From: Vicinamibacteria bacterium
GTDB taxonomy: Bacteria; Acidobacteriota; Vicinamibacteria; Marinacidobacterales; Marinacidobacteraceae
Assembly: GCA_963555995.3 (NCBI GenBank)
Contig: OY821641.1
Span: 311,399-375,398, forward strand
Length of the DNA stretch: 64,000 nucleotides
Reading direction: 5' to 3'
Shown: piece by piece, positions 43,738-57,807 of the stretch
Layout of the letters: each line of letters opens with the position of its first letter
Position numbering within the stretch: the stretch's first letter is position 1
The notes under the pieces: model-generated
Seen by the model: the letters and a program-made list of their open reading frames with translations, nothing else
Told to the model about the DNA's origin: nothing
The model's database searches: none
Made by a program: the position numbers and the translations under genes

Positions 43738-43908
43738 TCGACTGGACCACAGAGTTCGGCATCGCGGGCGGCCTGCCGGGACTCGTGCCGATTCCGTGTT
43801 CCAGTGCGATTTGCGTGTCCGGACAAGATGGTGGACACTCCACCGGACAATCTGCGGGACAATACTCAGGACAAACTACGGCCCAACGTTGGCCCGGAGG
43901 GCAGCGCC

Positions 43909-45123
43909 ATGACGACTTCGGGAGAGCGCGAGTACCAGAGGACCCACCCCTGGATCCGCTTCCAGCTCGACCTCCGGAAGGCCGATCCCGGACTCTGGGT
44001 CCTGCTCGGCCAGATCGTCGCCTTTGGCGAGTTCGTGTCCCGGGCGCTGCTGCCTCCGAAGGTGGCTGCGAACCTGGCGCGCCTCTACCTCGCCAAGGGC
44101 GTTCAGGCGACGGTCGCGATCGAGGGCAACACGCTCAGCGAGGAGGAGGTCCTCGCGCAGATTGATGACAGGCTCGAGCTTCCCGCTTCCAGGGAATACC
44201 TGGGCCGGGAAGTCGGGAATGTGGTGGATGCGGCCAACGACATCGTCACGCGCATCCACGGCGGGAACGCCCCGCGGCTCACCGCGGCGTTCGTGGCCGA
44301 CTGCAACGGCCGCATCCTCACCGGGCTTGCCGAAGTGCTCGGGGACGAGGTGGAGCCCGGGCGCATCCGCAAGCACTCCGTCGGCGTAGGCCGCTACCGG
44401 GGGGCGCCCGCCGAGGACTGCGAGTACCTGCTGGACCAACTGGGCGAGTGGTTGGAGGCGATTCCTCAGCTCACGGTCCTCGCCACCGAATCGGACAACC
44501 GCGTCGCAACCGGGGTCCTGCGCGCCGTGCTGGCCCATCTCTACCTTGCCTGGATCCACCCTTTCGGGGATGGCAACGGGAGAACCGCCCGGCTCGTCGA
44601 GCTGTCCCTGCTGGCGCGCGTCCTGCCGTTCCCGTCGACGCAGCTTCTGAGTAACCACTACCACGACACCCGCGCTGCCTACTACCGCGAACTCGACCGC
44701 GCCGGCCAGGCGAACCAGCGGCGCGGCGATGCGATCGGCTTCCTGCGCTACGCCCTCCAGGGACTCTCCGACGGACTCCGGGAGCAGTGCCGGGAGGTGA
44801 CCCGCATTCATCACCGGATCGCTTGGCGTGACTTCGTGTATCGCCGGTTCGACGAGGAAGAGACGTCCTCGGCGGTGCTTCGCCGCCGGCAGCTTCTCCT
44901 CGAGTTGCCGCCCCCCTCGACCCCGGTGTCCAGGGAGCGGATCCCGATCCACAGTCTGAAGCTCGCTCATTCCTATTCCGGCCTGAATCCCAAGACGCTG
45001 GATCGGGATCTGAACTGGTTGATCGAGAAGGGGCTCGTGGTCCGCTCCCCGGACGGCTATGCCGCCAACCGCGGTCTCATGCAGGCGTTCGTGATGCCGG
45101 GTGCACCGGAGGGCGGTACGTAA
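43909..45123 (+). CDS. Fic family protein (class II, intramolecular inhibitory motif)
   Basis: Fic motif 'HPFGDGNGRTAR' and the upstream inhibitory motif 'TVAIEGN' ([ST]xxxE[GN]). The start could also be 43804. Confidence 0.85.
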   Translation: MTTSGEREYQRTHPWIRFQLDLRKADPGLWVLLGQIVAFGEFVSRALLPPKVAANLARLYLAKGVQATVAIEGNTLSEEEVLAQIDDRLELPASREYLGREVGNVVDAANDIVTRIHGGNAPRLTAAFVADCNGRILTGLAEVLGDEVEPGRIRKHSVGVGRYRGAPAEDCEYLLDQLGEWLEAIPQLTVLATESDNRVATGVLRAVLAHLYLAWIHPFGDGNGRTARLVELSLLARVLPFPSTQLLSNHYHDTRAAYYRELDRAGQANQRRGDAIGFLRYALQGLSDGLREQCREVTRIHHRIAWRDFVYRRFDEEETSSAVLRRRQLLLELPPPSTPVSRERIPIHSLKLAHSYSGLNPKTLDRDLNWLIEKGLVVRSPDGYAANRGLMQAFVMPGAPEGGT

Positions 45124-45185: not shown

Positions 45186-45395
45186 CACAGGTTCCGCCGC
45201 CGCCGTATCTCGTCCTGACCAGGACCTCCGCAGGTAGGACGACAGCACCGGATCAACCAGCGTCCAGCGCCCGTCGTCGTTCCGGTCCAACATATGTTGG
45301 AACAAGGATCATTGGTCCAACAGATATGGAAGCCACGTCTTCCTCGGGGCGGTGCGCCCGGGGCACGGGGGCGCCATGCCTGCCGGTTGCCCGTC
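45186..45395 (-). pseudogene. internally deleted remnant of the orf110-end/ATPase_2 locus found intact at 56.5-57.8 kb
   Basis: 45223..45286 aligns with 56528..56591 (ATPase 3' end; encodes '[21 protein letters not shown]' versus '[21 protein letters not shown]'). 45287..about 45395 aligns with 57682..about 57790 (ATPase start and upstream region). About 1.09 kb of coding sequence is missing. Confidence 0.8.
45287..45300. promoter_or_regulatory. perfect 14-bp palindrome 'ccaacatatgttgg' (imperfect counterpart 'ccaatacatattgg' at 57682..57695)
   Basis: Read directly. Conserved in both copies of the ATPase upstream region, and followed by 'ttggaacaaggatcattgg(t/tt)c(c)aa'. Confidence 0.35.
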
Positions 45396-45537
45396 CTCGA
45401 TCCGCGGGAAGTCGCCGGGCAGCACGTCCTCGAGCCGGTTGGTCCGCTGCCAGACCGGGAACGCCCCGTGCGCCCTCAGGTCCCGCCGCCGCGACCGCGA
45501 TCGCGCATGGGTGACAATTGCCCGCGGAACCGAGGCA

Positions 45538-47169
45538 ATGTCACCCGCACGACCGAAGAAGGCGAAGCGCGCGGCCAGGACTGCCGGCGGGAGCGCCACC
45601 ACCGGCTACGAGGCCGAACTCTGGGCGATGGCCGACGCGCTGCGCGGCAGCATGGACGCGGCCGAATACAAGCACGTCGTCCTCGGGCTCATCTTCCTGA
45701 AGTACATCTCGGACGCCTTCGAGGAGACGTACGCCCGCCTGGAGGCCGAGAGGGACGAGGGCGCGGACCCGGAAGACCCGGACGAGTACCGCGCTGACAA
45801 CGTCTTCTGGGTGCCCCCGGAGGCCCGCTGGAACCGCCTCCAGGCGCAGGCGAAGCAGGCCACGGTCGGCCGGCTCGTGGACGACGCGATGGCGGGTATC
45901 GAGCGCGACAACCCGGCCCTCAGGGAGGTGCTGCCCAAGGAGTACGCGCGCCCGGCGCTCGACAAGCAGCGGCTCGGCCAGCTCATGGATCTGGTCAGCA
46001 ACATCCGGGTCGGAGACAGGGAAGCCCGCTCCCGGGATGTCCTCGGCCGGGTGTACGAGTACTTCCTCTCCGAGTTCGCGAACGCCGAGGGCAAGAAGGG
46101 CGGCGAGTTCTACACGCCGCGCTGCGTCGTCCGGCTGCTCGTCGAGATGATCGAGCCGTACCAGGGCCGGGTGTACGACCCGTGCTGCGGCTCCTCCGGG
46201 ATGTTCGTCCAGTCCGTCGAGTTCATCGAGGCGCACGCGAGCGGCAACGGGAACGCCCGGACCACGCCCTCGGGGGCCAAGGCGGACATCTCGATCTACG
46301 GTCAGGAGTCCAACTACACGACCTGGCGGCTCGCCCGGATGAACCTGGCCATCCGCGGCATTGGTGGCCAGATCGCCCAGGGCGACACCTTCCACAACGA
46401 CCGGCATCCCGACCTGCGAGCCGACTTCATCCTGGCGAACCCGCCGTTCAACGTGTCCGACTGGGGAGGCGACCGCCTCACCGAGGACCCGCGGTGGGAA
46501 TACGGCGTGCCGCCGAAGGGCAACGCGAACTTCGCGTGGGTGCAGCACATCGTCCACCACCTGGCGCCGACAGGTGTCGCCGGGTTCGTCCTCGCCAACG
46601 GGTCCATGTCCTCGCAGCAGTCCGGGGAAGGGGAGATCCGCAAGAACCTGATCGAAGCGGGTCTCGTGGACTGCATGGTCGCCCTGCCGGGGCAGCTCTT
46701 CTACTCGACCCAGATCCCGGCGTGCCTCTGGTTCCTGTCCCGGCGGCGGTTCGGCGGCGGCCTGCGCGACCGGCGCGGCGAGGTGTTGTTCGTGGACGCC
46801 CGGCGGCTCGGCCGCATGGTGACCCGCCGCCACCGCGAACTGACGGACGCGGAGATCACCCGGATCGCGGACACCTACCACGCCTGGCGCGGCGAGGAAG
46901 GAACGGGCGACTACGAGGACGTCCCGGGCTTCTGCCGGAGCGCCCCGCTCGACGAGGTGCGGAAGCACGGGTACGTGCTGACGCCTGGACGGTACGTGGG
47001 CGCGGAGCCGGAAGAGGACGACGGGGAACCGTTCGAGGCGAAGATGAAGCGGCTCGCCGCGGAGTGGCGGGAACAGCAGGCCGAGGCGGCGCGGCTCGAC
47101 GCGGAGATCGCGGCCAATCTCGCAGCGCTGGGTTTCGGGGACGGTGGTGGCGGCAATTCAGCGACTTGA
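45538..47169 (+). CDS. hsdM: Type I restriction-modification system methyltransferase subunit HsdM
   Basis: HsdM N-terminal block '[32 protein letters not shown]', AdoMet motif '[12 protein letters not shown]', catalytic 'ILANPPFN'. Confidence 0.92.
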
Positions 47170-47430
47170 GATCACAATCCGTGATGTCAAGTCGGGACGG
47201 GCGCCCGTCTCTCCCGCTCCCATTGCTGAACCGGGTGTCTTGATGTTCTCCGGAGTGCTGCGCAGTCCGCGCGCTGTTACGGTTCAGAAGATGCGGAAGG
47301 CGACCCGATTCCACCTCGACAGCTCTGCGGGATTCGGGGAGCTGGTTTCGGGAACGGTCGTCCAGTGTGGGGCTGGTGGTGGCCGCCCCGGCATACAGAC
47401 GCGCCCGATCCCACCGGGGAGTCGCCCGCG

Positions 47431-48729
47431 ATGACGTTCGACGCGGCAGACGTTCGGGAACGAATCCGCCTCGGCGAGGACGCGCGCTGGGAGCTCAAGG
47501 AGGTGGTGTTTCGAGGGAACCGCCTCGTCGGTCCCCGGCCTGACGCGCTTGCGGATGAGTTGGCCGCCTTCGCCAACGGTCGTGGCGGCATTTTGCTCCT
47601 CGGCGTGACCGAGGGTGGCGAGGTCCAGGGAGTCACCCGTACCCAACTCGATGAGCTTGACCGTAACGTCGTGGACCTCTGCCACAACCGGATCACGCCC
47701 CCTATCGAGGTCGATATCCGCCGTTTCCTCATCGAACCCGGGAAACCGGTCCTCTCCGTCGAGGTCGAACCGGGCTACGCCCAGCACGACAGCCCCGGCG
47801 GCGCGTACCAGCGCTTCGGCGGCAGCAAACGGCGGATGTCGCCGGATGAACGGCGTCGGCTCGCCGAGATCCGAAATCAGGCCCCCTTTCGGTGGTTCGA
47901 CAAGCAACCGGTGCCAGGCACCGGACTCGGCAGTCTCGACGACGCGCTTTGGGAACCGATGCTGGACGCTCAGGGACGGCTCGATCCCAGAAGAGGCCTT
48001 GCGAGACTGGCTCTCCTGGCGTCCGAAGCCGAGGCGGCGGCTGAAGCGACCGTCGCCGGCGTTTTGCTGTGCAGCCGCGCGCCGGAGCGATGGCTGCCAA
48101 ACGCCTGCATCACGGCGACTCACTATCGGGGCAAGGACCGCAGTTCCCCGCAGTTGGACGCGCGGGTCATCACGGGGCCGCTCCACCGGCAGGTCGCCGA
48201 CGCCATGACCTTCGTCGAGCGGAACATGCAGGTCGATGCCCACAAGACGTCAGCCCGGATGGATCAGCCCGAATACAGCCTCGAAGCGGTGTTCGAGGCG
48301 CTGGTGAACGCCGTGGCGCACCGCGACTACACGATCCGGGAAAGCCCAATCCGGCTTTCGATGTTCTCGGATCGGTTGGAGATTGCTACTCCGGGTCGGC
48401 TGCCGGGCAGTCTGACCGCCGATACGATGGGCAGCCGTCAGGCAACACGGAATGAAGCCATCGTTTCCATATTGACCGACATCGCGCTGGATGGAGTTTC
48501 CCGCTCGGGCAGCCCAGGTTTCTTGATGACGCGGCGCGGCGTCGGTATTGCCACTATCGCCCATAGAACCCGACGGCTCACGGGCCGGTCGCCCGTATAT
48601 GACGTGTCGGACGATGCCGTTACCCTCACGATTCCGGCGTCTCACCGCACAATGCCGAAGCTCTTCGCGAGAGCTTCCCGGCAAGGACGGGCCGCCGGCG
48701 GAACCGCCGATGCGAGGTTGGCAGGATGA
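47431..48729 (+). CDS. AlbA_2 (Schlafen-like) plus HATPase_c_4 domain protein ('RecG-like' putative DNA-binding/ATPase regulator)
   Basis: N-terminus 'GEDARWELKEVVF...ELAAFANGRGGILLLGV' (AlbA_2). C-terminus 'EALVNAVAHRDY...IRLSMFSDRLEIATPGRLPG' (HATPase_c_4). Its stop overlaps the next start (ATGA). Confidence 0.8.
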   Translation: MTFDAADVRERIRLGEDARWELKEVVFRGNRLVGPRPDALADELAAFANGRGGILLLGVTEGGEVQGVTRTQLDELDRNVVDLCHNRITPPIEVDIRRFLIEPGKPVLSVEVEPGYAQHDSPGGAYQRFGGSKRRMSPDERRRLAEIRNQAPFRWFDKQPVPGTGLGSLDDALWEPMLDAQGRLDPRRGLARLALLASEAEAAAEATVAGVLLCSRAPERWLPNACITATHYRGKDRSSPQLDARVITGPLHRQVADAMTFVERNMQVDAHKTSARMDQPEYSLEAVFEALVNAVAHRDYTIRESPIRLSMFSDRLEIATPGRLPGSLTADTMGSRQATRNEAIVSILTDIALDGVSRSGSPGFLMTRRGVGIATIAHRTRRLTGRSPVYDVSDDAVTLTIPASHRTMPKLFARASRQGRAAGGTADARLAG

Positions 48730-49211
48730 TCGCCGAAAAGGAACCGAGAATTGACTACTCCAGGTTCCAACTCTCCCTCAGACGGCTGGTGGAACAACAT
48801 GACAACCTCTTGGCCGCCGACGATGCGCTTTCGCGGCTGGACCGCGAGGCGCGTACCGAATCGGTGATTCGGCGTTTCAAGATGTGCTACGACTGCCTGT
48901 GGAAGGTCTTGAAGCGCTACCTCATCCAGAATCTCGGACTGGCTGATCCGCCAAATAGTCCTGTCCCGCTCTTCCGTCTGGCCGCGGAGAACGGTGTGTT
49001 CGATTCACCCGTTGAGCAGTGGATGCGGTACGTGGCCGCGCGAGTTGACACTGCCCACCACCACGACGGGGAGAAGGCGAAGCGCTGCCTCGATACCGTG
49101 CCCGAGTTTCTGGACGACGCCATCCATCTCTATGGGACGATAACGGGTGAACCATGGGGCAGCAATCCTGCCGCGCCGTTTGCCGCCGGTAGTGCACCAT
49201 GCTGGACCTGA
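48726..49211 (+). CDS. HEPN domain protein, HI0074 (nucleotidyltransferase substrate-binding) family, paralogue 1
   Basis: 'VIRRFKMCYDCLWKVLKRYL' and an R-x4-H motif 'RVDTAHHHD'. No Tyr two residues after the His. Confidence 0.8.
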   Translation: MIAEKEPRIDYSRFQLSLRRLVEQHDNLLAADDALSRLDREARTESVIRRFKMCYDCLWKVLKRYLIQNLGLADPPNSPVPLFRLAAENGVFDSPVEQWMRYVAARVDTAHHHDGEKAKRCLDTVPEFLDDAIHLYGTITGEPWGSNPAAPFAAGSAPCWT

Positions 49212-49621
49212 CTCCGCTCGACAACGCCATAGCCCAACTCGAAGAGGCGCTCGATTTCCACGGGTCTGACCTTGCTGCCGAGCAGCCGCGACTCCGGCTC
49301 CAGTTGCGCGCGGCCGCGATTCAGGCGTTCGAATTCACGTACGAGCTCTCCTTCAAGATGCTTGGCCGGTATCTGGAGCAAGTTATGCCGAATCCAGCGG
49401 CAGTGGACAAGATGCCGTTCAAGGACCTGATCCGGGAAGCGCTGGGTCGCGGGCTGCTCGCCGCGGACGTAGATGCGTGGGAGCGGTTCCGGAAGTTTCG
49501 GGGAACGACCAGCCACACCTACGACGCCGGAAAGGCACAGGCCATCTTCGAAGGCATTCCGGAGTTTCTGGACGAAGTCCGGTATCTCCGGAAGCGGCTC
49601 CGCACCAACGTGGAAGGGTGA
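49199..49621 (+). CDS. HEPN domain protein, HI0074 family, paralogue 2
   Basis: 'AIQAFEFTYELSFKMLGRYL' and the canonical 'RGTTSHTYD' (R-x4-H-x-Y). It overlaps paralogue 1 by 13 nt. Confidence 0.85.
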   Translation: MLDLTPLDNAIAQLEEALDFHGSDLAAEQPRLRLQLRAAAIQAFEFTYELSFKMLGRYLEQVMPNPAAVDKMPFKDLIREALGRGLLAADVDAWERFRKFRGTTSHTYDAGKAQAIFEGIPEFLDEVRYLRKRLRTNVEG

Positions 49622-51255
49622 TGGCGCCCGCGATTGATCTTCGTCCGGATCACCGGAAGATCGTCGAGGACATCCTGCGCGACCACCTCCCGGATGGCGC
49701 CAAGGTCTGGGTCTTCGGAAGTCGCGCCGAGTGGACCACCAAGGATTCTTCCGACCTGGACCTCGCGCTCGAAGGTGACGGGCCGCTCGATCGCCGGATC
49801 GTGATGGCGCTCGAACTGGCTTTCGAGGAGTCGTTCCTCCCGTTCCGGGTGGACGTGGTGGATCTGGAGCGGGTGCAGGAGCGGTTTAGAGAGATCGTGC
49901 TCCGAAGCCGCGTTGGCCTGTCTTTGCCGAGGGATGGTGAGGCAACGTATACGAATCGAGGCGAGATGGGGTTCTCAGATGCCTTCCTAGTGAATCCAAG
50001 AGTCAAGCTGGAACGAGATGTGGAGTATCCGTTCGTCGAAATGAGTGATCTGATGCCGGGTCTGCGTGCGGCTGTGTCAACGCGGCGTCGTCGGTTTCGC
50101 GGTGGCGGTTCTCGCTTCAGAGCCGGTGACACTTTGATGGCGCGAATAACGCCATGTCTCGAAAACGGCAAGATTGCCCGTTACGTGGCAACACGGAAAG
50201 ACGACGTAGGACATGGTTCGACCGAATTCATTGTCATTCGAGGCCGCCCCGATGTAACGGATACCGAGTTTGCCTTCTATGTGACGCGTTCAGATTCAGT
50301 CCGGGAATACGCGATCTCTCAGATGAGTGGCACATCGGGCCGGCAGCGCGTCCCAGTGGACGCGTTGAACACTCTGATGGTTTCTGTACCAAGCCTTCCT
50401 GAGCAGCGCGCAATCGCGAGCGTTCTCGGGACGCTCGATGACCGCATCGAGCTGAACCGGCGGATGAACGAGATATTGGACGCGATGGCGCGGGCGCTCT
50501 TCAAGTCCTGGTTCGTGGACTTCGATCCTGTACGGTCAAAAATGGAAGGCCGCGACGCGGGTCTGCCGTCCGAGATCGCCGACTTGTTCCCGGACCGGCT
50601 GGTGGAGTCGGAGTTGGGCGAGATTCCCGAGGGATGGGCCGTCATGCCGCTTGCAGAGGTCATGGAAATCAACCCCGTCCGCACACTCAGTAGGGGTCAC
50701 ATCGCGCCCTACCTCGATATGGCAAACATGCCGAGAACGGGTCATGTTCCTCTCAGTATCCGAATGCGGAACTTCGGCTCGGGGACCCGATTTGTGAACG
50801 GCGACACGCTCATGGCGCGGATTACGCCATGCCTTGAGCATGGGAAGACAGCCTATGTGGATTTCCTCCAACACGGTGAAGTCGGATGGGGTTCGACTGA
50901 GTTCATTGTGCTGCGACCGAGGCTGCCAATCCCCGGCGAATATGCCTACTGTCTTGCGAGAAGTTCTCGTCTTCGCGAACACGCGATCGCGAGCATGACG
51001 GGGAGCAGTGGGCGACAGCGAGTTCCGCCGGCCGCGCTTTCCCAGTTCCTGGTGTGTGTGGCAACTCCGGGGATCTATCGCGCGTTTGGCGATTCGGTGA
51101 GCGCGTTGTTCGCCCGTGTGCGAGAAGGGCAGCGTCGTTCGCGTGCCGCGACTTCCCTCCGCGACATGCTCCTGCCCAAGCTCGTGTCCGGCGAAGTCCG
51201 CGTGCCCTCTACTCTGGTCGGGCGCTACAACGACCCCGCAGCGCCTGCGACCTGA
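49621..51255 (+). CDS. hsdS: fusion protein: minimal nucleotidyltransferase (MNT) domain plus Type I specificity subunit HsdS
   Basis: Residues 1-100 carry pol-beta NTase motifs 'VFGSRAEWTTKDSSDLDLAL' and 'FRVDVVDL'. The rest is a two-TRD HsdS ('GDTLMARITPCLENGK', central 'LPEQRAIASVLGTLDDRIELNRRMNEILDAMARALFKSWFVDF', 'GDTLMARITPCLEHGK', 'LRDMLLPKLVSGEV'). There is no stop between the domains. The ATG overlaps the HEPN2 stop (TGATG). Confidence 0.8.
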   Translation: MAPAIDLRPDHRKIVEDILRDHLPDGAKVWVFGSRAEWTTKDSSDLDLALEGDGPLDRRIVMALELAFEESFLPFRVDVVDLERVQERFREIVLRSRVGLSLPRDGEATYTNRGEMGFSDAFLVNPRVKLERDVEYPFVEMSDLMPGLRAAVSTRRRRFRGGGSRFRAGDTLMARITPCLENGKIARYVATRKDDVGHGSTEFIVIRGRPDVTDTEFAFYVTRSDSVREYAISQMSGTSGRQRVPVDALNTLMVSVPSLPEQRAIASVLGTLDDRIELNRRMNEILDAMARALFKSWFVDFDPVRSKMEGRDAGLPSEIADLFPDRLVESELGEIPEGWAVMPLAEVMEINPVRTLSRGHIAPYLDMANMPRTGHVPLSIRMRNFGSGTRFVNGDTLMARITPCLEHGKTAYVDFLQHGEVGWGSTEFIVLRPRLPIPGEYAYCLARSSRLREHAIASMTGSSGRQRVPPAALSQFLVCVATPGIYRAFGDSVSALFARVREGQRRSRAATSLRDMLLPKLVSGEVRVPSTLVGRYNDPAAPAT

Positions 51256-51455: not shown

Positions 51456-52978
51456 TTAACAGCCTGTGGTGAAACTCCGCTGGGCGGGATTGAGTGCGCT
51501 GGCGGGGCTTCGTAGAATTTTCGCATGGCTATGGGACGTCGCGGGACGCGGCGGCAAGGGTTGTGGATTGCGACCGGGGCGCTGCCTCGGAGCAAGGGGG
51601 ATCCGTTTTACGAGCGTCTGAATAAGGTTCTCGGGGGGGATCGCTTTGACGAGTATGTGGAGGAGCGGTGTGAGCGTCACTACGCGCCGGACGGTCGTCC
51701 TGGGCTTGCGCCTGGGCGGTATTTCCGCTGCCTTCTGATCGGGTATTTCGAGGGTCTGGACTCGGAGCGATTGATCGCGTGGCGGGTGAACGACTCCCGC
51801 AGCCTGTTGCGGTTCCTGGGTTACGGGCCGGCGGACAGCGGGCCGGATCATTCGACGATTTCGCGGACGCGCCGTCGGGTGAGTGAGGAGACGCACGCGG
51901 AGGTGTTCGGCTGGGTTGTGGAGCGGGTGAAGCGAGCGGGGCTTCTGCGGGGGGATGCGCTGGGGGTGGATACGACGACGCTGATGGCGAACGCCTCGAT
52001 GCGGAAGATCGTGCGACGGGACAGCGGGGAGGGCTACCGGGAGTATGTGAGGAGGTTGATGGAGGAGTCGGGGATCGAGGCTCCGACGTTGGAGGAGTTG
52101 GCGCGCTACGACCGGACGCGGAAGAAGCGGTTGTCGAACGGCGACTGGGCGCATCCGGTGGACCCCGAGGCCCGCATCAGTCGGCTGAAGGATGGCCGGA
52201 CGCGGATGGGGTACAAGGCGGAGCACGCCGTGGACCTGGCGAGTGGCGCGATCGCGGCGGTGACGGTCCAACCCGGGGACCGCGGGGACACCAAGACCCT
52301 GCCGCAGACCCTGGACGAAGCGGAGAAGCATGTGGGGGCCGGGGCGGCGGAGGCTGAAACGCCGGGGAAGCCAACGGCTTGCCGGAAGGAGGGGAAGCCC
52401 CGGTCCTTGGTGTGTGACAAGGGGTATCACAGCGATGCGGTGATCGAGCAGACGCGGGAGCGTGGTTACCGTTCGTACATCGCGGAGCCGAAGCGCGGGC
52501 GTCGTCGCTGGCGGGGTCGAGAGTCCCTGCGTCGCGCGACATACGGCAACCGTCGGCGGGTTCGTGGAAATCGCGGCACCCGGCTGCGAAGACGGCGCCA
52601 CGAACTGACGGAGCGTTCCTTCGCGCACTGCTACGAGACCGGCGGGATGCGCCGGGTGTGGTTGCGGGGCAGTGGGAACATTCGAAAACGTCTGCTGATC
52701 CACACCGCTGGCTTCAATCTGTCGCTGCTCATGCGGCGCCTGACCGGGATCGGGAAACCAAAGGGCCTCCAGAACCGGAACATGGAGGCCATGCAGCGCC
52801 ACTTGTCGCCCGGACGGGCCTCCCTGTGGCGCATCGTGCACCTCTGGCGCCGTTGTCCGACCGCGATCCTCGTTCTCTTGACCGAACCCCCGTCCTGGCC
52901 GTGTCTCCACGAGCAGAAGCTCGACGCTCATTCCCGACGGAATCCGCCGTGAACGCCACTTTCACCACAGGCTGTTAA
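51456..52978 (+). mobile_element. IS5-superfamily (IS1182-like) insertion sequence, 1,523 bp
   Basis: Perfect 19-bp terminal inverted repeats: 'ttaacagcctgtggtgaaa' (51456..51474) and 'tttcaccacaggctgttaa' (52960..52978). The outermost TTAA could instead be a target duplication. One transposase ORF. Confidence 0.85.
51525..52952 (+). CDS. IS5/IS1182-family DDE transposase
   Basis: InsH-type N-terminal domain ('FRCLLIGYFEGLDSERLIAWRVNDSRSLLRFLGY..HSTISRTRRR'). DDE region ('LGVDTTTLMANAS', 'CDKGYHS', 'ERSFAH...RGSGNIRKRLLIHTAGFNL'). Confidence 0.85.
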   Translation: MAMGRRGTRRQGLWIATGALPRSKGDPFYERLNKVLGGDRFDEYVEERCERHYAPDGRPGLAPGRYFRCLLIGYFEGLDSERLIAWRVNDSRSLLRFLGYGPADSGPDHSTISRTRRRVSEETHAEVFGWVVERVKRAGLLRGDALGVDTTTLMANASMRKIVRRDSGEGYREYVRRLMEESGIEAPTLEELARYDRTRKKRLSNGDWAHPVDPEARISRLKDGRTRMGYKAEHAVDLASGAIAAVTVQPGDRGDTKTLPQTLDEAEKHVGAGAAEAETPGKPTACRKEGKPRSLVCDKGYHSDAVIEQTRERGYRSYIAEPKRGRRRWRGRESLRRATYGNRRRVRGNRGTRLRRRRHELTERSFAHCYETGGMRRVWLRGSGNIRKRLLIHTAGFNLSLLMRRLTGIGKPKGLQNRNMEAMQRHLSPGRASLWRIVHLWRRCPTAILVLLTEPPSWPCLHEQKLDAHSRRNPP

Positions 52979-53012: not shown

Positions 53013-56141
<3,129 letters not shown>

Positions 56142-56194: not shown

Positions 56195-56527
56195 ATGACT
56201 CATAAACCCGATGCCCTTGAACGAGATTTCGACGCCGCGATGATGCAGATCTACTACCGTGCGAAGGACGAGGTGGGATACAACGCGAACCGGTTTCTGC
56301 AAATGCTGCACGACTACGGCGGCGTTGAAACCGCCAGGCGCCTGCTACCGGCCATGTCCGACGGATTCACTGCACTCTACGAACACTGTCGTCTCGACCT
56401 GACCGTCGAGTACCTCGTGCTGCAACCCCGATGGCATCAACTCTTCACGGATGAAGAGCGAGACACGGCGCGTCGCCGTCTCAAGTGCTGCGGGATGGAG
56501 GTTCCGGCCGTATCTCGTTCGGACTAA
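56195..56527 (+). CDS. hypothetical protein (110 aa) downstream of hsdR
   Basis: Protein-like composition ('RFLQMLHDYGGVETARRLL', 'LTVEYLVLQPRWHQLFTDEE'), 53 nt after hsdR. No family recognised. Confidence 0.6.
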   Translation: MTHKPDALERDFDAAMMQIYYRAKDEVGYNANRFLQMLHDYGGVETARRLLPAMSDGFTALYEHCRLDLTVEYLVLQPRWHQLFTDEERDTARRRLKCCGMEVPAVSRSD

Positions 56528-57690
56528 GACCTCCGGAGGTAGGACGCCATCACCGGATCAACCAGCGTCCAGCGGCCGTCGTCATTCCGGTGGATCAGGT
56601 CGTCCTGTTCGAGTACCGCACGGGCGTGATTCCCGGTGGATGCGGGCAGCCTGAGAGTGGACAGGAACCGGTGGGAGCCCGGGTGTTCCACTCCGTCCTC
56701 GGACTGGGCGATGGCCTTGAGCATGGCGCGTTGGCTGGCCGGACGACGGAGCAGGCGGCCGGCGGCGACGCGTCCATCTTCGTCCACGATTCGGGACCAA
56801 TGCGCTTCCACGGATTCGATGCCGGGCGAGCGCTGACCGCCCCAGAGCCGGGCGCAGAGCGCATTCACATAGTAGGGATGCCGTGCCGTGAGCCTGAGGA
56901 CTCGAGCGATCACGTCGTCGGCCACCGGCTGGCCCCAGCGTGTCCGGCTCGCTTCCTGGATGAAGGCCCGGTAGTCAGCCTCCCCGATGCGGTCGAGGGT
57001 GATCTTGCGGCACAGGCGGTACAACGGCCGCTCCTCATCCTCGAACATCCCGGCCAGCAGGCGCCGCTGGCTCCCGGAGAAGAGATAGGTGACATTCCCT
57101 GACCGTTCGACCGCGTGCCGGATGGCGCCTTCGAGGCTGCGCTGCGCGGTCTTGGGGGAAAGCTGCGACAACTGCTGAAACTCGTCGAGCACCAGGACCA
57201 CCCGGCGCCCGACCATCCCGGCGGCCCGGTCGAGGCCGAGCAGCATTTCGGTGATTCCCCGTGTCGGAGGACCCGGCGGCGTGAGGCGGATCTTCAGACC
57301 CATCGCACCGACGGAGAATTCCGGAGAGAGCGCGCGGAACGCGTCGGTGAGCGTTTGACTCGCTTTTCTGCCCTTTGGTGCGATCCGGGCGCTCACGCCT
57401 TCAACTGCCGTTCGCAACCGTCCTTCGAGGTCTTGGCCGTCGTGGGCGACCAGCAGGTCAACGGCGGTGGCGGCGATCTCCGTTCCAGCGAGGTCCTGCA
57501 GCACCTGTTCGATGAGGCTGGTCTTGCCCGTCCGGCGGTGGCCCCAGAGCCAGGTGTGCGTCCCGGAAGCGATGTTGTGGCTGAGTTCGGCGCGCTCCTC
57601 CGTGCGGTTGCAGTGGGCGGCTCCCGTCGCGATTCCGAGCGGGAAGAGGTCCGTTCCGGCTGCCATGTGAGGGATTTTATTCCAATACAT
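56524..57690 (-). CDS. ATPase_2 (archaeal-ATPase/ORC-like) family P-loop NTPase with C-terminal wHTH-like region
   Basis: Walker A 'GHRRTGKTSL', Walker B 'VVLVLDEFQ', C-terminus '[24 protein letters not shown]'. The start may instead be the Met at 57666. Confidence 0.8.
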   Translation of the reverse strand: MYWNKIPHMAAGTDLFPLGIATGAAHCNRTEERAELSHNIASGTHTWLWGHRRTGKTSLIEQVLQDLAGTEIAATAVDLLVAHDGQDLEGRLRTAVEGVSARIAPKGRKASQTLTDAFRALSPEFSVGAMGLKIRLTPPGPPTRGITEMLLGLDRAAGMVGRRVVLVLDEFQQLSQLSPKTAQRSLEGAIRHAVERSGNVTYLFSGSQRRLLAGMFEDEERPLYRLCRKITLDRIGEADYRAFIQEASRTRWGQPVADDVIARVLRLTARHPYYVNALCARLWGGQRSPGIESVEAHWSRIVDEDGRVAAGRLLRRPASQRAMLKAIAQSEDGVEHPGSHRFLSTLRLPASTGNHARAVLEQDDLIHRNDDGRWTLVDPVMASYLRRS

Positions 57691-57807
57691 ATTGGAACAA
57701 GGATCATTGGTTCAACGGATATGGAAGCCGTCCTTCTCGCGACGGTGCGTTGCAGGGCACGGGTTCGCCATCCGTGCCGGTTTGGTGGGGCGCCTCGCGC
57801 CTTCGGC

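Follow-up and report, generated by a model that had tools for sequence, protein, structure and literature searches.

A HI0073-like nucleotidyltransferase domain at the N terminus of a Type I restriction specificity subunit

HEPN/MNT pairs are among the commonest toxin-antitoxin (TA) modules, and HEPN genes located in restriction-modification (R-M) operons have long been proposed, and rarely been shown, to act as second-line suicide effectors. Can the two layers of defense be physically connected? This question is raised by a locus in a 64-kb stretch of DNA with a G+C content of 69% from a Vicinamibacteria bacterium (contig OY821641.1; hereafter, the window), in which a single gene of a Type I R-M operon encodes both a minimal nucleotidyltransferase (MNT) domain of the antitoxin type and the specificity subunit HsdS and directly follows a HEPN gene. 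Comparative sequence analysis indicates that this gene is a genuine and evolutionarily maintained chimera that belongs to a large and old family.

The fusion gene and its predicted structure

The open reading frame (ORF) occupies positions 49621-51255 of the forward strand, from an ATG at 49621 to a stop codon at 51253-51255, and is uninterrupted; its 544-aa product consists of an MNT domain, a disordered linker, and a complete HsdS with two target recognition domains (TRDs). Its ATG shares one base with the TGA (49619-49621) of the upstream HEPN ORF (49199-49621), which confirms the TGATG overlap noted in the original prediction for this locus, and a Shine-Dalgarno-like GGAAGGG lies just 5' of the ATG. 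The MNT domain comprises residues 1-97 (49621-49911) and contains the predicted catalytic motif GSX10DXD as GSRAEWTTKDSSDLD at residues 33-47 (49717-49761; G33, S34, D45, and D47) as well as the block VDVVD at residues 77-81 (49849-49863), in which D78 (49852-49854) is the third acidic residue; both elements are present exactly as first described. The flexible linker corresponds to residues 98-113 (49912-49959), in keeping with an earlier estimate of about 15 aa. It has a predicted local distance difference test (pLDDT) score below 50 at residues 104-111 and varies in length and sequence among homologues, in which the respective alignment columns are gapped and unconserved. The HsdS body (49960-51255) follows with TRD1, a central conserved helix, TRD2, and a C-terminal conserved helix.

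The proposal that an N-terminal antitoxin-type MNT domain is covalently joined to a full HsdS is borne out by Pfam, PADLOC, AlphaFold2, and Foldseek alike. Both Pfam and NCBIfam models match the N-terminal part, the Pfam matches being Polbeta (PF18765) at residues 20-96 (E value 5.9e-9; 36.4 bits, cutoff 26.9) and NTP_transf_2 at residues 14-86 (27.7 bits, cutoff 21), and the best match in the Protein Data Bank (PDB) is HI0073 (1no5; E value 2.8e-15). In the body, Methylase_S matches residues 188-284 (33.8 bits, cutoff 22), the PADLOC model Specificity_I covers residues 242-530 (E value 5.6e-110), and further specificity models match across residues 123-350. The AlphaFold2 model, based on 68 fused homologues (mean pLDDT 90.3), has a compact alpha/beta MNT fold at residues 9-97 and a canonical HsdS from about residue 114 onward, with long helices at residues 259-299 and 483-523. 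In Foldseek comparisons the N-terminal domain superimposes on HI0073 (1no5) with a TM score of 0.84-0.86, a root-mean-square deviation of 1.4-1.7 Å, and 42% identity, and also matches the MNT antitoxin 8xeo and the MntA structure 7bxo, whereas the body matches the HsdS structures 7vs4_C, 1yf2, 5ybb_D, 3okg, and 2y7c. Together, the model and these matches correspond to the HsdS hallmark of two TRDs that alternate with two conserved helical, coiled-coil-forming regions. The MNT domain is therefore found as the N-terminal part of a 544-aa protein and not as a free-standing antitoxin of less than about 150 aa.

It had been pointed out that an internal ATG at 49966, which is M116 of the fusion (MGFSDAFLVNPRV), might also give rise to a conventional HsdS. 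This ATG exists and has the sequence GAGG 6-9 nt upstream, and unfused homologues begin at the equivalent of fusion residue 109 or 116; however, the arrangement is not conserved across the fused family. Most of the 29 fused loci lack a start codon or a Shine-Dalgarno sequence at the codon-116 position, and because only the window has GAGG plus ATG there, internal initiation is ruled out as a trait of the family.

Distribution of the fusion and its HEPN partner

An exact look-up found no record of the window protein itself. The nearest record, P0001, comes from another assembly and differs by G163A, and P0002, which is 80% identical, comes from two further samples; both have the same open frame. 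The N-terminal domain is present in 78 of the 120 best full-length homologues, at 30-84% identity, and it is thus not the case that all close homologues are separate genes. For a census, the 115-aa MNT domain was searched exhaustively against 1.84 billion cluster representatives, which resulted in 3590 matches with an E value of 1e-3 or less and 923 with an E value of 1e-10 or less. At least 106 of the best 150 MNT representatives contain HsdS sequence, 100 of them identified by phmmer and 6 by a Pfam scan that covered the 36 representatives unclassified otherwise; 80 of the 100 phmmer-positive representatives are longer than 480 aa, and just 14 of the best 150 are 150 aa or less. Most of the remaining mid-length representatives have the TRD start W...L...G and, by their sequence, look like truncated gene calls. 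A word-index search with the same 115-aa query returned short proteins only and missed all fused homologues, and was therefore unfit as a census. The caveat that a lost stop codon or an assembly error had created the frame is refuted by these independent copies and by the more than 100 diverged clusters with the same architecture.

We also scanned one genome per species and identified 80 related loci, 24 of which are fused, all of them in metagenome-assembled genomes. Fused loci are distributed over at least nine phyla, namely Chloroflexota, Acidobacteriota, Spirochaetota, Pseudomonadota, Zixibacteria, Poribacteria, Nitrospirota, Nitrospinota, and Gemmatimonadota, and were identified in Dehalococcoidia, Vicinamibacterales, Bryobacterales, Spirochaetia, Alpha-, Beta-, and Gammaproteobacteria, Zixibacteria, Poribacteria, Nitrospirota, Nitrospinaceae, and Gemmatimonadetes. 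A cultured carrier is Zymomonas mobilis ATCC 10988, in which plasmid pZMOB01 encodes a fusion of 527 aa (WP_014466389.1) that begins ...FGSRARWTAKDYSDLDI...; a HI0074-family gene (motif RRNLTSHTY) overlaps its start, and hsdR follows. RefSeq names this protein "restriction endonuclease subunit S". Similarly, positions 2-90 of the PADLOC S-subunit profile PDLC03138 align to fusion residues 5-94, that is, to the MNT part, so that curated S-subunit sets already contain the fusion unremarked. Among 80 fused homologues, each of G33, S34, R35, D45, and D47 is conserved in 79, S44 is invariant, and 71 have D or E at position 78, a pattern from which the MNT domain is predicted to be catalytically competent and appears to be under selection as an enzyme.

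Two candidates were set aside in the course of this survey. P0064 (687 aa, locus L006) could be taken for a triple HEPN-MNT-HsdS fusion, but the junction, ...GYQPRPNALLPELGRKGNA followed directly by MMDGLKD..., reads like a frameshift read-through; this protein, known from a single contig, is probably an indel artefact and was left out as evidence. The hsdSp gene of Zymomonas ZM4 is not a characterized fusion, since plasmid pZM32 carries a conventional 420-aa HsdS in the order R-M-S (PMC8432527). Separately, we observed that JGI gives the name "type I restriction enzyme S subunit" to the MNT-only proteins P0177 and P0216 (102-104 aa), presumably because annotation was transferred from fused proteins, which propagates the misannotation.

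Fused and split states of the gene pair both persist. On plasmids of Acetobacter ascendens (L094) the order HEPN-MNT-hsdS-hsdR is the same as in the window, and the MNT protein is separate (100 aa); its gene ends with TAA, and hsdS starts 12 nt further on in the same frame, so that a single stop codon separates the fusion from a split state that occurs in nature. A stand-alone HEPN-MNT pair is also present in a Type I operon of Gallionella (L039), where an AlbA_2 gene lies between MNT and hsdS, and in L011, where such a pair precedes the fused one. The HEPN followed by a separate MNT gene in L094 and L039 supports the earlier observation that the fusion is placed exactly where a stand-alone MNT gene would be, and these three loci, together with published surveys (PMC3710099), substantiate that HEPN/MNT pairs are embedded in Type I R-M operons. 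Two further proteins that seemed to be free MNTs proved otherwise: for P0133 (L088), an insertion sequence (IS) has interrupted a fused gene at the linker, and P0125 (L089) belongs to the remnant of a decayed hsd operon.

The HEPN gene that overlaps the fusion, HEPN2 (49199-49621, forward strand), encodes a HI0074-family protein and predicted RNase toxin that matches PF08780 (E value 3.4e-29; 101.8 bits) and TIGR01987 (76.6 bits, cutoff 55.8). Its RX4HXY motif is RGTTSHTY at residues 101-108 (49499-49522), and its closest PDB structure is HI0074 (1jog; E value 6.7e-22); the window MNT and HEPN2 also match the solved HEPN-MNT complexes 8xeh and 5yep/7aer. A HEPN gene is located immediately upstream of the fusion in 24 of the 24 scored fused genome loci and likewise in the look-up loci L001 and L004 (the latter being the same contig as L008). 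In the fused genome loci the HEPN stop overlaps the fusion start by 1-17 nt with two exceptions, and in the closest relatives (L092) the operon has the minimal form hsdM-HEPN-[MNT-HsdS]-hsdR with overlapping genes throughout. Two classes of HEPN can be distinguished, and RX4HXY is common to both; RX4H is retained in the HEPNs of all scored fused loci and the Tyr in nearly all. In a set of 26 operons, made up of 23 loci from the genome scan plus the window, L001, and L004, the pairwise identities of HEPN and MNT are strongly correlated (Spearman 0.77; Mantel p 0.0005), whereas the HsdS body is uncorrelated with either (Spearman 0.11 vs. HEPN and 0.10 vs. MNT). HEPN and MNT therefore appear to coevolve as a pair around which TRDs are shuffled. 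Because of this covariation and the invariant synteny, HEPN2 is identified, on the basis of sequence comparison, as the cognate partner of the fused MNT.

Of the two HEPNs of the window, only the proximal HEPN2 is of the same class as the fused MNT; the distal HEPN1 (48726-49211, forward strand) is of another class and no longer has the acceptor Tyr. HEPN1 is a member of the "other" class of the NTase_sub_bind family (PF08780, E value 2.2e-16); with 60.4 bits it passes the PF08780 threshold, and with 38.9 bits it fails that of TIGR01987. Its motif RVDTAHHH (residues 106-113, 49041-49064) retains R and H and has His in place of the acceptor Tyr, whereas all 7 of the 7 aligned HEPN1 orthologues and an extra HEPN1-like copy in L006 have R-x4-H-D-Y. 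Members of the HEPN1 class normally precede an MNT-HsdS of their own class; the 64-kb window contains a single MNT and no cognate-class MNT for HEPN1, and this MNT is 41-46% identical to MNTs associated with HEPN1-type proteins and 48-68% identical to those associated with HEPN2-type proteins. By the Shewanella precedent described below, HEPN1 could be toxic and yet not neutralizable; its tolerance might reflect heterodimers with HEPN2, decay, or a lack of expression.

The operon and the surrounding island

The genes of the operon, all on the forward strand, have the order hsdM-(AlbA_2)-HEPN1-HEPN2-[MNT-HsdS]-(IS)-hsdR. The Type I methyltransferase gene hsdM (45352-47169; N6_Mtase, E value 4.3e-106; HsdM_N, E value 1.6e-27) probably starts at ATG 45538 rather than at the listed GTG. 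It is followed by a gene encoding SLFN/AlbA_2 and HATPase_c_4 domains (47365-48729; PF04326, E value 3.5e-16; PF13749, E value 1.7e-14), for which ATG 47431 is the probable start and whose stop overlaps the HEPN1 start (ATGA); this gene matches PADLOC pAgo-associated models (E value 2.1e-17) and recurs in related Type I operons (L005, L011, L014, L023, L026, L039, and L090). Between hsdS and hsdR lies an IS element (51456-52978, forward strand) with perfect 19-bp inverted repeats (TTAACAGCCTGTGGTGAAA) at 51456-51474 and 52960-52978 and a transposase ORF (51525-52952) with DUF772 and DDE_Tnp_1 domains. The intact hsdR gene (53013-56141) encodes the restriction/translocase subunit with HSDR_N, SWI2_SNF2, T1R_D3-like, and T1RH-like_C domains (E value 2.4e-138 for the last). 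As hsdS and hsdR overlap in L092 and are separated by the IS in the window, hsdR may be transcriptionally uncoupled here. The locus of the fusion thus contains hsdM and hsdR with full domain sets, as do most related loci, and compared with its closest relatives the window operon has gained the AlbA_2/HATPase_c_4 gene, HEPN1, and the IS.

The composition of the operon is mosaic. G+C content at third codon positions (GC3) is 0.93 for hsdM and 0.89 for hsdR, compared with 0.71-0.77 for the AlbA_2, HEPN1, HEPN2, and MNT sequences, and within the HsdS body it is 0.55 in TRD1, 0.84 in the central conserved region, and 0.65 in TRD2. This distribution points to an acquisition of the accessory cassette and the TRDs that was separate from that of the hsdM/hsdR backbone, and the low GC3 of the TRDs is consistent with their shuffling around the HEPN-MNT pair. 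Immediately upstream of hsdM is a Fic/DOC-family gene (43804-45123, forward strand; PADLOC SoFic, E value 1.8e-43), and Fic genes are also found within related operons (L022, L038, L039, and L050); the region is therefore a multi-effector defense island.

Several further observations concern the surroundings of the operon. Direct repeats of 89-90% identity bracket the R-M island (45202-45334 vs. 56507-56591 and 57681-57729); the right-hand pieces flank an ATPase-like gene on the reverse strand (56524-57690), corresponding to its 3' end and upstream region, and the left-hand pieces are contiguous, as if the body of such a gene had been deleted. These repeats may mark island boundaries or an insertion history. 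In Dehalococcoidia relatives, genes for KwaA, a ThsB-like TIR protein, and 8xMP are inserted between the fused hsdS and hsdR (L004, 8638-11184; L005, 10912-12044), and the hsdS-hsdR junction, at which the window has its IS, seems to be a hotspot where defense genes insert. In addition, a conserved 81-aa ORF without Pfam match (MTV..LI..L...P.D.R.VVNGYE.G.DDLSP.QIS..RIALNTG...) is located directly upstream of HEPN in L006 (4371-4616), after an hsdM fragment, and in L088 (5301-5546), after hsdM; no counterpart was noticed in the window.

Proposed function, alternatives, and relation to known systems

Our preferred explanation, to which we assign a probability of roughly 0.6, is that the locus encodes a HepT/MntA-like (type VII) TA module within a Type I operon and that the antitoxin is tethered to HsdS, giving a restriction-linked abortive-infection back-up. 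The HEPN dimer would be an RX4H RNase, and the MNT domain would use ATP together with GSX10DXD and D78 to AMPylate the Tyr of RGTTSHTY and in this way hold the RNase off. Such an antitoxin would act catalytically rather than stoichiometrically and hence could ride on a subunit as scarce as HsdS. The tether would equate the supply and location of the antitoxin with those of HsdS and of the M2S1/R2M2S1 complex; once that complex was lost, sequestered, or not replenished, for example by host shut-off or by an anti-restriction function of a phage, freshly synthesized HEPN would remain unmodified and RNA would be cleaved, with an outcome analogous to that of PrrC/EcoprrI.

Several lines of published work bear on the steps of this scheme. 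MntA of Shewanella adds three AMPs to Y104 in the RX4HXY motif of HepT through its GSX10DXD motif, and mutation of Y104 leaves HepT toxicity intact and impairs neutralization (PMC7641770). N-terminal fusion to HsdS is tolerated, as an engineered HsdM-HsdS fusion of EcoKI retains full activity (PMC6158711). In a fused MNT-HEPN protein the fusion stabilizes the MNT domain, which in isolation is rapidly degraded (PMC13000451), and RNases that serve as R-M "guardians", PrrC among them, are established (PMC3710099; PMC12707154). By homology to the solved HepT/MntA systems, the fused MNT is predicted to AMPylate the HEPN Tyr; HEPN would further bind to the R-M complex and respond to the trigger outlined above; the original suggestion that control of the toxin is coupled to assembly or DNA engagement of the R-M complex is plausible.

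A number of points weigh against this explanation. The mechanism is derived by homology and not from biochemistry or genetics of members of the fused family, and the steps in which HEPN stays on the R-M complex or anti-restriction proteins perturb the MNT domain are hypothetical. The fused MNT scores 38.2 bits against the NCBIfam MntA_antitoxin equivalog model NF047752 (cutoff 60) and is for this reason classified from its sequence as a HI0073-like relative rather than a strict MntA equivalog or orthologue. Covalent linkage is not needed for the module to persist, as is evident from the split Acetobacter versions, and the fusion could add little beyond coexpression. HsdS proteins with the same TRDs but without MNT or HEPN exist, and the MNT domain is therefore dispensable for R-M function. 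In this organism a second product, a plain HsdS starting at M116, is possible. Finally, HEPN1, without a cognate MNT and without the acceptor Tyr, does not fit the simple model.

A more elaborate form of the proposal, which we put forward tentatively and hold to be doubtful as it stands, is that HEPN dimers dock on the HsdS-borne MNT and that the M2S1/R2M2S1 state gates AMPylation, so that inhibition of restriction would set off HEPN-mediated abortive infection. DNA-mimic anti-restriction proteins, proteolysis of HsdS or HsdR in restriction alleviation, and stalled translocation could all serve as inputs, and the Tyr-less HEPN1 could be an un-neutralizable heterodimer partner of HEPN2. If true, this would amount to a widespread, PrrC-independent guard mechanism that uses a posttranslational mark.

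Alternatively, the HEPN/MNT cassette may be selfish, the fusion of its antitoxin to hsdS making loss or replacement of hsdS or the operon lethal or costly and thereby stabilizing the island without any sensing of phage. The overlapping genes and translational coupling are classical TA features, the islands are mobile and mosaic (IS elements, GC3 mosaicism, and plasmids in Zymomonas and Acetobacter), and the module persists where an IS breaks hsdR (L001-L003), all of which would favor an addiction module. However, HepT-type toxins carry a stable covalent mark, so that postsegregational killing would need de-AMPylation or fresh toxin, and the free shuffling of TRDs around the fused MNT (rho 0.10) means that hsdS is not frozen. 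We regard addiction as rather unlikely, and it is not mutually exclusive with a guard function. Less probable still is a neutral fusion, in which loss of a stop codon joined in-frame neighbors, the MNT functions like a free MntA, HsdS functions normally, an internal start may add plain HsdS, and the linkage has no regulatory meaning. The single TAA plus 12 nt that separates the Acetobacter genes, the disordered and unconserved linker, the common occurrence of unfused HsdS with the same TRDs, and the GAGG-preceded ATG at codon 116 of the window would all be compatible with such an accident; nevertheless, the fused state dominates among the closest MNT relatives (at least 106 of the best 150) and has been kept across at least nine phyla and two divergent HEPN/MNT classes, which would be unexpected for a neutral event, several apparent stand-alone relatives are broken fused genes (L088 and L089), and the family generally lacks the internal start signals seen in the window.

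The HEPN protein may also be no toxin at all. HI0074 was reportedly first proposed to be the substrate-binding subunit of a two-component nucleotidyltransferase with HI0073, and HsdS might bring such a holoenzyme to the R-M complex or onto DNA; it would there nucleotidylate HsdM or HsdR, nucleic-acid ends, or a protein of the phage, for example to tune restriction alleviation. The Pfam and NCBIfam name of the HEPN family, "nucleotidyltransferase substrate binding protein", and the placement of a predicted nucleotidyltransferase beside a DNA-bound machine are in line with this idea, but the HEPNs conserve both RX4H and the acceptor Tyr, and the homologous pairs that have been studied are TA systems in which HEPN is the target and not a cofactor (PMC7641770), leaving it quite improbable. 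As for a sequencing or assembly error, or a private and recent stop loss in a pseudogene-like copy, the chance is negligible given that the G163A and 80% identical copies from independent assemblies share the open frame, that the same architecture recurs, with its catalytic residues conserved, in more than 100 diverged clusters, and that a complete RefSeq plasmid carries the fusion.

A large and conserved family whose enzymatic antitoxin is covalently built into the DNA-recognition subunit offers what is so far the most direct evidence from genomes of a physical coupling of both layers, and it hints that restriction and cell-suicide defenses are wired together. Hundreds of entries named "restriction endonuclease subunit S" hide a domain predicted to be an active nucleotidyltransferase. 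From an engineering perspective, the S subunit tolerates folded N-terminal cargo on a flexible linker. The coupling is experimentally accessible, since Z. mobilis ATCC 10988 with pZMOB01 is a cultured carrier and the Acetobacter plasmids offer natural split controls.

The closest functional counterparts are HepT/MntA modules, namely Shewanella SO_3166/SO_3165, the Aphanizomenon flos-aquae HEPN/MNT pair, and Haemophilus influenzae HI0073/HI0074. They share with the window the minimal nucleotidyltransferase fold with GSX10DXD, the adjacent RX4HXY HEPN, overlapping and translationally coupled genes, and the best PDB matches (1no5 and 1jog); they differ in that the window antitoxin is the N-terminal domain of HsdS and not a free protein of about 100-140 aa, that the toxin gene comes first, and that the module is integral to a Type I R-M operon. 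PrrC/EcoprrI, and conceptually PARIS, likewise have a HEPN-superfamily RNase in a Type I hsd operon (PMC3710099; PMC12707154), and the expected common logic is that the RNase is silent while the R-M complex is intact. PrrC, however, is an ABC-ATPase-HEPN anticodon nuclease that is checked by noncovalent binding of EcoprrI, whereas the HEPNs of the window are single-domain NTase_sub_bind proteins of 140-161 aa, and the predicted RNase is a small HepT-like protein whose putative modifying enzyme is covalently attached to HsdS. In FhepTA of Shewanella (PMC13000451) an MNT antitoxin domain is also part of a larger polypeptide with a short linker, but there it is fused to its own toxin, whereas the window MNT is fused to the DNA-recognition subunit and the toxin is separate. 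The PDB entries 9z7q, 9z7v, and 9z7x ("Cmr1-MntA"), by name alone, place an MntA-type domain on a type III CRISPR subunit; their match to the window MNT is marginal in sequence (E value 0.36), we found no paper on these entries in a full-text literature search, and we mention them as a lead only.

HEPN genes, including MNT-associated families, cluster with R-M operons, and R-M-associated HEPN domains are fused to nucleases, helicases, and ATPases and not to methylases (PMC3710099). A full-text literature search found no description of an MNT-HsdS fusion, the sequences being present in databases as plain "subunit S", and the view that this is not a recognized architecture is upheld; it is apparently undescribed. 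Stand-alone HEPN-MNT pairs in Type I operons (PMC3710099) represent the same families in the same setting without a covalent link to HsdS. HepT/MntA-like modules in Type I operons were therefore already known, and what is new in the window and its relatives is that the antitoxin is part of the specificity subunit.

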